From: Escherichia coli O157:H7
Lineage (GTDB): Bacteria; Pseudomonadota; Gammaproteobacteria; Enterobacterales; Enterobacteriaceae
Assembly (NCBI GenBank): GCA_013403045.1
Contig: GCA_013403045.1_3037.1
DNA length: 64,000 nucleotides
Reading direction: 5' to 3' (one strand)
Shown here piece by piece: positions 52,183-53,010 of this stretch (position 1 is the stretch's first letter; the number at the start of each line of letters is the position of its first letter). A program made the position numbers and the translations under genes. The notes beneath the pieces were generated by a model that saw only the letters and a list, made by a program, of their open reading frames with translations, made no database searches and had not been told where the DNA came from.

Positions 52183-52637
52183 TGGAATTTAAAGACTTTT
52201 CAACGGGTCTTTATGTAGCAGCTAAGTTTTCAGAATTAACACTTGATGCGCTGGAAGAACTTCAGCGCTCTTTACGTGTTCCTAATCCAGTTCCTAGAGA
52301 AAAAATTCATTCGACTATATGTTATTCAAGAGTAAATGTTCCGTATGTTCCATCAAGCGGAAGTTTTGAAGTAGCTTCTTCTGGACATTTAGAAGTATGG
52401 AAAACACAAGATGGATCTACTCTTGTACTTGTACTAGATTCTGAATATCTGCGCTGTCGACACATGTATGCGCGGGCGCTAGGTGCTACACATGATTTTG
52501 ACGATTACACACCGCATATAACATTGTCTTATAATGTTGGGCCCTTATCATTTAGCGGTGATGTACAAATTCCGGTCGTATTAGATCGTGAATACAAAGA
52601 ACCTCTTAAGCTTGATTGGGCAGACGATTTAAAATAA
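52182..52637 (+). CDS. 57B: gp57B, LigT-like 2H phosphoesterase fold
   Basis: 151 aa; two H-x-T/S-x motifs (HSTI, HITL) about 78 residues apart. Confidence 0.8.
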
Positions 52638-52680
52638 TTTCACAAAGTTGTTTACACACTGATGAGGTAGTGATACTATT
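52621..52680 (+). repeat. direct repeat copy A (60 bp) containing an early promoter
   Basis: 33-bp core gatttaaaataatttcacaaagttgtttacac identical to 52955-52987; -35 GTTTAC at 52650-52655, -10 TACTAT at 52674-52679. Confidence 0.7.
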
Positions 52681-52709
52681 ATCTCATCAAAATTAATTAG
52701 GAAAATAAA

Positions 52710-52967
52710 ATGAAAACTTTCAAAGAGTTTGCTACAAAAACTACTATCACTGAATCTTCTCATGGTATGGAAGTAAAGCTTGGAATGGCTTTAGCTGAAG
52801 CTGAGCGTCTTTTCTCTCGTATTAAAGAACTTGCTGCTGCAGTCGATCCTTCGTCTTTTAAAGGAGACCAAACTAAAGTTAAAGCACTTTTAGCATTATG
52901 CTCTGACGCAGGAGAAATCGCTAAAAATGGTTCTAAGATGAAGAAACGATTAGAAGATTTAAAATAA
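52710..52967 (+). CDS. internal-protein-like small protein with capsid-targeting N-terminus
   Basis: 85 aa; N-terminus MKTFKEFATKTTITE resembles the T4 Ip leader MKTYQEFIAE with an I-x-E gp21 cleavage motif; at the ipI position next to 57B. Confidence 0.65.
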   Translation: MKTFKEFATKTTITESSHGMEVKLGMALAEAERLFSRIKELAAAVDPSSFKGDQTKVKALLALCSDAGEIAKNGSKMKKRLEDLK

Positions 52968-53010
52968 TTTCACAAAGTTGTTTACACGGGGTTTTAGTAG
53001 TGATACTATT
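52951..53010 (+). repeat. direct repeat copy B (60 bp) containing an early promoter
   Basis: same core as copy A; -35 GTTTAC at 52980-52985, -10 TACTAT at 53004-53009. Confidence 0.7.

Follow-up and report, generated by a model that had tools for sequence, protein, structure and literature searches.

Repeated promoter-plus-stem-loop modules flank the ip5 cassette in the 57B-tRNA.4 interval of a T-even phage

In a 64-kb stretch of DNA (64,000 nucleotides, contig GCA_013403045.1_3037.1 of an assembly listed under Escherichia coli O157:H7), which was analysed as a whole and is called the window below, the phage gene ip5 for an internal head protein is bracketed by two copies of a direct repeat. 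Each copy holds an early-type promoter and a stem-loop that straddles its -10 element. Related phages carry different sets of internal protein (ip) genes between the same conserved neighbours, 57B and tRNA.4, and the parentage of natural variants appears to switch inside the blocks that are identical between the repeats. The two modules are very probably paralogous regulatory units of the T-even internal protein (IP) locus, which provide promoters and, at the same time, portable homology for cassette exchange. Positions 51940-53610 of the window are 100% identical by BLAST to Escherichia phage AR1 (Tequatrovirus; AP011113 / NC_027983). The features on which the argument is built are the following.

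52182-52637, + strand: 57B (acb1), the conserved left anchor of the locus; an open reading frame matching Pfam Acb1 (2.6e-60)
52622-52690, + strand: repeat copy 1 (repeat family D1), with the promoter and stem-loop ahead of ip5
52650-52679, + strand: early-type promoter of copy 1 (GTTTAC 52650-52655, N18, TG 52671-52672, TACTAT 52674-52679)
52660-52689, + strand: hairpin of copy 1, with a 13-bp stem and a 4-nt loop, enclosing TGn and the -10 element
52710-52967, + strand: ip5, an 85-aa internal head protein with the N-terminal capsid-targeting leader MKTFKEFATKTTITE; Shine-Dalgarno sequence AGGAA at 52699-52703
52952-53020, + strand: repeat copy 2 (repeat family D1), with the promoter and stem-loop ahead of tRNA.4, beginning in the last codons of ip5
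52980-53009, + strand: early-type promoter of copy 2 (GTTTAC 52980-52985, N18, TG 53001-53002, TACTAT 53004-53009)
52988-53015, + strand: hairpin of copy 2, with a GGGGU/ACCCU outer stem, a UU/UU internal loop and a UAGUA/UACUA inner stem, enclosing TGn and the -10 element
53038-53223, + strand: tRNA.4, the conserved right anchor, a 61-aa predicted membrane protein (phrog_1692); Shine-Dalgarno sequence GAGGAG at 53026-53031

The two copies were aligned by a repeat finder over 69 nt with 84% identity at a spacing of 330 nt, and weaker similarity beyond these 69 nt reaches the Shine-Dalgarno sequence and the ATG. An earlier note on this DNA had described identical stretches of 33 and 13 bp. The repeat itself is real, and the lengths have to be corrected to a long exact block of 32 nt, GATTTAAAATAATTTCACAAAGTTGTTTACAC (52626-52657 and 52956-52987), and a second one of 15 nt, GTAGTGATACTATTA (52667-52681 and 52997-53011). 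No exact direct repeat in the window is longer than the 32-mer; the runner-up has 21 nt, and the longest repeats in first-order Markov resamples of the window (n=30) measured 15-20 nt. Both upstream open reading frames are closed by GAC/GAA GAT TTA AAA TAA (52623-52637 and 52953-52967), of which the 12 nt for D-L-K-TAA lie within the repeat. Copy 1 consequently contains the last three codons and the stop of 57B (ending at 52637) and copy 2 the terminal codons GAA GAT TTA AAA TAA (E-D-L-K-stop) of ip5 (ending at 52967), just as the earlier note had placed the start of each copy in a gene whose protein ends in DLK. The 30 nt upstream of the -35 element have an identity of 0.90 between the copies versus 0.17-0.47 for other early promoters in the window. 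For the core from -35 to -10 the value is 0.77 versus a background of 0.47-0.73 among those promoters. The true repeat is mainly an upstream part of 32-36 nt together with the 15-nt -10 block, and the remainder is common promoter consensus. No further copy of the module was found in the window, in which TTTCACAAAGTTGTTTAC matches two sites only, even with up to 3 mismatches allowed.

Exactly one gene lies between the copies, as had been claimed: ip5 (52710-52967) is the sole credible open reading frame there. It matches phrog_3499, annotated as internal head protein, over its full length (1.2e-49), and Ip5 is the annotated name in phages RB51, RB32, and ime09. The gene fits the definition of a T-even IP cassette, a small open reading frame, in the 57B-tRNA.4 interval or at a second IP locus near e, that begins with the leader MKT(F/Y)(K/Q)EF. 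IP cassettes further have a downstream (L/I)xE cleavage motif for processing by gp21.

Each copy contains a complete early promoter, GTTTAC-N18-TACTAT, in which the 18-nt spacer after GTTTAC equals TTTACA-N17 and TG sits one base before the -10 element. The 24 nt upstream, GATTTAAAATAATTTCACAAAGTT, are 79% A+T. Both copies fit the UP/-35/TGn/-10 layout of T4 early promoters given in Hinton's review (PMC2988021), and both are predicted to be active, with starts near A52686 for copy 1, placed there by spacing only, and near A53016 for copy 2. The depositors of phage Lutter annotated both promoters, and such promoters are also annotated in the fPS phages. A literature search for mapped T4 transcription starts at ipI and tRNA.4 yielded nothing usable.

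For the comparison with relatives, the 57B-tRNA.4 interval was parsed into open reading frames and intergenic modules in 14 GenBank phages picked down the BLAST ranking. These genomes show 11 arrangements with zero to three cassettes, built from six ip genes, between a near-invariant 57B and a near-invariant tRNA.4. Apart from the choice of start codon, the 57B protein is identical in 13 of the 14 genomes, and tRNA.4 is near-identical in the same number; LF82-8 was not parsed for either gene. The arrangements are listed here by the ip genes that they contain.

Empty site: slur11
ip5: the window/AR1, Lutter
ipI: RB55 (T4 species)
ip7: G8
ip gene for a 77-aa protein (77-aa ip): ECO07P5
ip5 and 77-aa ip: JLBYU24, UGKSEcP1
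ip5 and ipI: RB3
ipI and 77-aa ip: ECML-134
ip9 and ip7: N2
ip5, ip9, and ip7: RB32
ip9, ip7, and 74-aa ip: G4498, 310Ecol104PP

A module precedes each cassette in these related genomes, and ip5 is replaced in relatives by ipI, ip7, ip9 or two other ip genes. All six cassette types open with the capsid-targeting leader (CTS) MKT(F/Y)(K/Q)EF. Across the wider Tevenvirinae, 36 contigs from IMG/VR carry between zero and at least five CTS-bearing open reading frames in the interval. The GenBank notes of RB32 state that Ip9/Ip7 are 'flanked by 43 bp direct repeat' and that Ip5 'replaces ipI'. The earlier note had proposed to look for a different gene between the same repeats in relatives, and had named a lack of cassette variation at the site as the outcome that would speak against it. 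With 11 arrangements in 14 genomes, the outcome is strongly positive and the opposing prediction fails.

The intergenic modules can be parsed into an upstream segment, GTTTAC, a spacer with the 5' arm of the hairpin, the segment GTGATACTATTA, and a 3' arm with leader. The upstream segment U1, which is GATTTAAAATAATTTCACAAAGTT, is found after 57B and ip5, is truncated after ipI, and is absent after ip7, ip9, and the 77-aa ip. The spacers, which carry the 5' arm, fall into the classes S1 (CTGATGAGG), S2 (GGGGTTTTAG), and S3 (TTTTAGATAGGG), and the 3' arms with leaders into D1 (TCTCATCAAAATTAATTAGGAAAATAAA-ATG), D2 (CCCTATCAACTACTGAGGAGAATAAA-ATG), D3, and D4. In these terms, the window has U1-S1-D1 as copy 1 and U1-S2-D2 as copy 2. 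GTGATACTATTA has a third exact match inside 57A (52097-52108), with no properly spaced -35 element; chance is the probable explanation, as three or more matches occurred in 4 of 100 shuffles.

Two natural variants place the inferred crossovers in the two exact blocks. The single module of slur11 is U1-S2-D2 after the GAC codon of 57B. Its left part corresponds to copy 1 and everything from the spacer on to copy 2, with 2 substitutions in the spacer, and the crossover should therefore lie inside the 32-nt block. JLBYU24 has the order ip5, a U1-S2-D3 module, the 77-aa ip, and an S3-D2 module. Copy 2 of the window equals module 2 of JLBYU24 up to the -10 element and module 3 after it, which puts this crossover inside the -10 block GTAGTGATACTATTAC (15/16 nt). 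Hybrid modules with non-complementary arms are present between ip5 and ipI in RB3 (S2 with D1), between ip9 and ip7 in all cases (S3 with D1), and between 57B and ip9 in 310Ecol104PP (S1 with a D2-like arm). These mismatched-arm modules are read as further footprints of exchange in the -10 block. Altogether, the inferred crossover intervals cover at least three identity patches, namely the U/-35 block, the -10 block, and the leader/CTS.

The inverted repeats that the earlier note had seen around each -10 element were confirmed as hairpins by RNA folding. For copy 1, the fold has a dG of -14.8 kcal/mol in RNA (z -5.0; none of 200 shuffles was as stable), -8.1 in antisense RNA, and -5.4 kcal/mol in DNA. 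For copy 2, the values are -12.9 kcal/mol in RNA (z -3.5) and -5.1 in DNA. In a survey of 53 distinct combinations of spacer, -10 element, and 3' arm from all loci, a dG of -10 kcal/mol or lower was reached in 35. At least five complementary arm pairs occur (GAUGAG/CUCAUC, GGGU/ACCC, GGGCU/AGCCC, GGUCUAUAG/CUAUAGACC, and GAUGAU/AUCAUC). Since the distance from the 5' arm to the -35 element differs among S1, S2, and S3 and alignment columns are not homologous, the energies of native arm combinations were compared with those of combinations in which the 3' arms were swapped between classes. Native combinations averaged -10.7 kcal/mol versus -7.4 after swapping (Wilcoxon p 1.6e-6), and 36 modules folded more stably as sense RNA than as antisense RNA and 3 less stably, both tests being uncorrected for shared descent among the modules. 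Arm co-variation and sense-strand bias together favour a structure that is selected in the RNA of the + strand. G-U pairs make up 12% of the hairpin pairs, and the DNA fold is weak because the hairpin relies on them; this difference between weak DNA and strong sense RNA argues for a role in RNA rather than as a DNA cruciform.

The position of the hairpins also points to the RNA on which they would act. Counted from the predicted starts at A52686 and A53016, the 3' arm of both copies reaches to about +1 to +4, and the transcript of the module's own promoter would therefore lack the hairpin, which forms only in read-through RNA from upstream. In such RNA it is located immediately 3' of the upstream open reading frame. 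The nearest late-promoter consensus upstream, TATAAATA, lies 1.1 kb before ip5 (51577-51584, + strand) and may be the source of late read-through transcripts that form the hairpins. Because Ip5 is part of the head, late synthesis of the protein probably relies on transcripts that run through the copy 1 hairpin. An intrinsic terminator was considered for the hairpins and rejected, since a U-tract is absent and neither hairpin was called in the terminator scan. Attenuation, insulation or stabilisation of the 3' end of upstream RNA would be likelier than efficient termination. No known RNA family was found by an Rfam scan of 52400-53300 at E<=1.

From these observations, the following scheme is proposed. 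Each module combines an upstream A/T-rich segment, starting within the final codons of the gene before it, with a strong T4-type early promoter, a stem-loop astride the -10 element, a short leader, and a Shine-Dalgarno sequence, and would serve as immediate-early promoter for its own downstream gene, ip5 or tRNA.4. The hairpin would probably act on read-through RNA from upstream in one of the ways named above. Since 15-32 nt of exact identity are present on either side of every cassette, the modules offer portable homology for the general recombination of the phage. Exchange between modules, within one genome or between co-infecting genomes, could delete, insert or swap a single promoter-plus-ip unit, leaving the neighbours undisturbed and a functional hybrid module behind. 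Recombination proteins of the phage would carry out the exchange, possibly with a 330-bp circle as intermediate. As a result, the locus would keep a changing set of injected anti-defence proteins.

Several observations weigh against this scheme or limit its reach. Essentially no hairpin is present in 12 of the 53 modules, and the stem is therefore not obligatory. Shared descent among modules was left uncorrected in the tests of co-variation and strand bias. Neither hairpin is followed by a U-tract (AUCAAAAUUAAUU, AUCAACUACUGAGG), neither is listed by the terminator scan, and the need for read-through across the copy 1 hairpin in late expression of ip5 from 1.1 kb away speaks against strong termination. 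In many genera, finally, arrays vary even where promoters are lacking, and the modules are therefore not the sole route of shuffling. This last point belongs to an alternative in which turnover is mainly due to ordinary homologous recombination in 57B, in tRNA.4, and in the leader, Shine-Dalgarno, and CTS codons during co-infection, the promoter repeats being passenger expression signals. The near-identity of 57B and tRNA.4 across the sampled genomes indeed supplies hundreds of bp of homology for such exchange. The CTS is also mosaic relative to the gene bodies: ip9 of N2 (L013) has the ip7-type leader MKTFKEFINEA, and the 77-aa ip occurs with the leaders MKTFKEFIAES, MKTYQEFIAET, and MKTYQEFIAEA, mosaic leaders being found at the loci L013 (N2), L002, L010, and L012. 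This mosaicism suggests that recombination may also take place within the CTS codons. Moreover, one and the same ip gene can follow different leader types, as ip9 stands after D2 in RB32 and 310Ecol104PP and after D4 in G4498 and N2. In many other genera of the Tevenvirinae the ip genes directly abut 57B or each other, with no promoter between them and with arrays that differ. There the first ip gene overlaps the 57B stop (TTAAAATGAAAAC, whose TGA shares T and G with the ATG) and is not preceded by a promoter module; the counterpart in the window is TTAAAATAATTTCAC. Among the IMG/VR loci, this overlap (at about 3453-3456) is seen in L018, L023, L027, L030, L033-L039, L041-L044, L049, L050, and L052. 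Against this alternative stands the parentage switch in the slur11 and JLBYU24 comparisons, which is inside the promoter module and not in the flanks or the CTS. Exchange in the flanks replaces whole arrays and cannot, on its own, produce the insertion or deletion of a single cassette with a hybrid module, and the hybrid modules with mismatched arms are a direct trace of exchange at the -10 block. Recombination outside the modules is thus rather unlikely to be the chief process, and it is partly complementary to exchange through the modules.

The other explanations are far less probable. T4 early promoters share an extended consensus beyond -35 and -10, and between -35 and -10 the identity of the two copies, at 0.77, barely exceeds that of other early-promoter pairs in the window (up to 0.73), as would be expected if the similarity reflected only functional constraint on strong early promoters, with neither recombination nor common descent. 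The 30 nt upstream, with 90% identity against 17-47%, include 12 nt of coding sequence from two unrelated genes; TTTCACAAAGTTGTTTAC occurs at just these two sites of the window even at 3 mismatches, and the breakpoints of natural variants fall in the identical blocks, all of which makes constraint as the only cause very improbable. An equally poor prospect is the view that the hairpins are active recombination sites, at which a structure- or sequence-specific protein catalyses excision and integration in the manner of attC, in place of general recombination. The hairpins are kept and their arms co-vary, and Arbiol 2010 speculated that the PeSL stem-loop is the target of a specific DNA-binding protein, drawing an analogy with integrons (PMC2839356). 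The spread of crossovers over at least three identity patches is nevertheless better explained by homology-dependent exchange than by a single cleavage site, the DNA folds (-5.4 and -5.1) are much weaker than those of the sense RNA (-14.8 and -12.9), and no integrase-like gene is encoded at the locus. A wider version of this idea, with a dedicated hairpin-recognising factor that promotes excision and integration of promoter-plus-ip units and with stem-loops selected as sense-strand RNA elements or as recognition structures that define the boundaries, is disfavoured because the breakpoints are spread and the fold is RNA-biased, and is given a marginally better but still very small chance; if true, injected anti-restriction proteins would be shuffled by a cassette system like that of integrons but without an integrase. 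An artefact of assembly or construction, with a spurious local duplication, has practically no standing. The window does depart from the AR1 record elsewhere, with 6,062 bp missing at 54470|54471; dozens of phages that were sequenced independently, among them AR1, Sf23, Sa45lw, JY01, RB51, RB68, wV7, ime09, and Lutter, nevertheless match the 57B-ip5-tRNA.4 stretch with both modules in a single BLAST piece (96-100% identity), and the annotation of both promoters by the Lutter depositors likewise contradicts an artefact.

The modules that very probably mediate these exchanges belong to a type that has been described before. Conserved elements of T-even IP loci were reported by Repoila, Tetart, Bouet & Krisch 1994 (EMBO J 13:4181), as cited in PMC2839356 and PMC4122927. 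Arbiol 2010 (PMC2839356) called these elements 'PeSL-like', regarding them as analogues and not homologues of PeSLs, with T4 early promoters and weaker, A/T-richer stem-loops, and Comeau 2014 (PMC4122927) likewise treated them as PeSL-like and gave TTTACW-N17-TAYWAT as promoter consensus of the PST/T4 PeSLs. According to these later summaries and to GenBank notes, the 1994 elements share with the ones described here the locus (57B-tRNA.4), the phage group, the CTS-led ip cassettes, and early-promoter repeats with weak, A/T-rich stem-loops. The names Ip5, Ip7, and Ip9 stem from that work and its successors. On the same basis no substantive difference is apparent, and AR1 represents one more genome with the order 57B-ip5-tRNA.4.

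PeSLs were defined in RB49 and phi1, where promoter and terminator activity was shown, mini-circles were found, and five positional subclasses were described, one of which overlaps the -10 element (PMC2839356). The modules of AR1 resemble them in the succession of stop codon, A/T-rich region, -35/-10, stem-loop, Shine-Dalgarno sequence, and ATG, with a subclass that likewise overlaps the -10 element. In both cases, small non-essential open reading frames in hyperplastic regions are flanked by the elements, to which differences between close relatives map. RB49 PeSLs differ in their near-perfect sigma-70 promoters (TTGACA/TATAAT) and in G(n)...C(n) stems with a terminator strength equal to that of rrnB T1, whereas the elements described here have GTTTAC/TACTAT and weaker, A-U/G-U-rich stems (GAUGAGG.../...CUCAUC and GGGGU.../...ACCCU) with no U-tract. 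Mini-circles have been demonstrated for RB49/phi1; at the AR1 locus the corresponding 330-bp circle is a prediction. The PST/T4-type PeSLs (PMC4122927) are also from Tequatrovirus, have the same consensus, and are associated with indels and replacements between close relatives. Their stem-loop is situated just upstream of the promoter and has an AGNA-loop-TCNT motif, whereas the arms of the AR1 modules straddle the -10 element. A composite of the PST kind is present elsewhere in the window (62542-62604), where an early-type promoter (GTTTAC 62575, TACTAT) directly follows a canonical intrinsic terminator made up of AGTCTCCTTCGGGAGACT and a T-run. Integron cassettes with attC sites are comparable in that single small open reading frames lie between repeated imperfect palindromes in variable arrays and that a circular intermediate has been proposed. 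They differ from the AR1 locus, which has no integrase, a promoter for each cassette instead of a shared Pc, breakpoints on several homology patches instead of one site, and an RNA-biased fold where integrons use folded single-stranded DNA.

As for the class, the early promoter of the AR1 modules is preceded by A/T-rich sequence, the stem-loop overlaps the -10 element, and boundaries of indels and replacements in relatives fall within the elements. The modules are placed between a stop codon (TAA 52635-52637 and 52965-52967) and a Shine-Dalgarno sequence with ATG (52699-52712 and 53026-53040), and they are repeated around small open reading frames that differ between close relatives. The combination of TTGACA/TATAAT with a G(n)-loop-C(n) stem, which characterises PeSLs in the strict sense, is lacking in them. 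Judged by these sequence-level features, the AR1 elements are PeSL-like and not homologues of the RB49 PeSLs. The assignment in the earlier note to promoter-plus-stem-loop modules that flank a cassette, as in the hyperplastic regions of T4-type phages, is thus borne out by the features themselves, the 11 arrangements, and the crossovers placed in both blocks.

Some observations concern the 3' end of ip5. The segment 52953-52987, which comprises the end of ip5 and the next 20 nt (TTTCACAAAGTTGTTTAC and the following AT, through the -35 hexamer), recurs without a mismatch in a divergent phage contig (L040, 3442-3480), where it covers the 3' end of 57B with the 20 nt that follow; the 57B of this contig is 80% identical and ends in AEDLK. 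A distant homologue of ip5 in another contig (L029, 4139-4460) ends in EDLK, with synonymous changes and a different downstream promoter. The shared ending may have been acquired by ip5 from the 3' end of a 57B gene, or it may be of older date. With cassette boundaries within coding sequence, recombination could rewrite the C-termini of proteins. A second IP locus lies just downstream of the lysozyme gene e and encodes Ip4 (157 aa, MKTYQEFITEAA; 55737-56210). It is preceded by an early-type promoter (ATTTAC-N18-TAGTAT, 55647-55676) unlike that of the 57B locus, and neither a flanking direct repeat nor a copy of the 57B-locus module was found at this locus (55647-56210).

The gene order on the + strand is gp2, gp3, gp1 (dNMP kinase), 57A (51940-52182, + strand), 57B, ip5, tRNA.4, tRNA.3, and tRNA.2. 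The 57B product belongs to Pfam Acb1, an anti-CBASS nuclease. Two further open reading frames were rejected as genes: one with a TTG start (52978-53223, + strand), which begins within the copy 2 promoter, the true start of tRNA.4 being the ATG at 53038, and one of 44 aa (52629-52763, - strand), which is antisense across the copy 1 promoter and the start of ip5. The annotated antisense gene ar1_148 of AR1 spans the same promoter and gene start and is likely an annotation artefact, as is a second 'internal head protein' coding sequence of JLBYU24 that was annotated from a TTG within the promoter (L002, 2539-2838). The window parts from the deposited AR1 genome at 54470|54471: it lacks 6,062 bp of the record (63895-69956 of NC_027983), which comprise all 10 tRNA genes, segD, e.3-e.8, and part of ar1_129, which is shortened to a 52-aa open reading frame at 54515-54673. 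No tRNA gene was found anywhere in the window. The gap may reflect a true deletion variant or the way in which the window was assembled; a deletion mediated by the modules was rejected as its cause, the junction showing neither repeat nor microhomology.

The phenomenon and the locus are already known, having first been reported in 1994 and generalised in 2010 and 2014, and the AR1 genome is public. The AR1 case is a clean textbook example and adds no new principle; possibly useful to specialists are the mapping of breakpoints to two identity blocks, the co-variation of the hairpin arms, and the sense-strand bias. The locus itself matters biologically: internal proteins of T-even phages are injected with the DNA. 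Three from T4, Ip1, Ip2, and Ip3, are so far the only ones with identified targets, and each of them disarms a different GmrSD-type restriction enzyme (PMC12373910). A mechanism that exchanges internal proteins singly would therefore bear directly on host range and on the design of phage-therapy cocktails.

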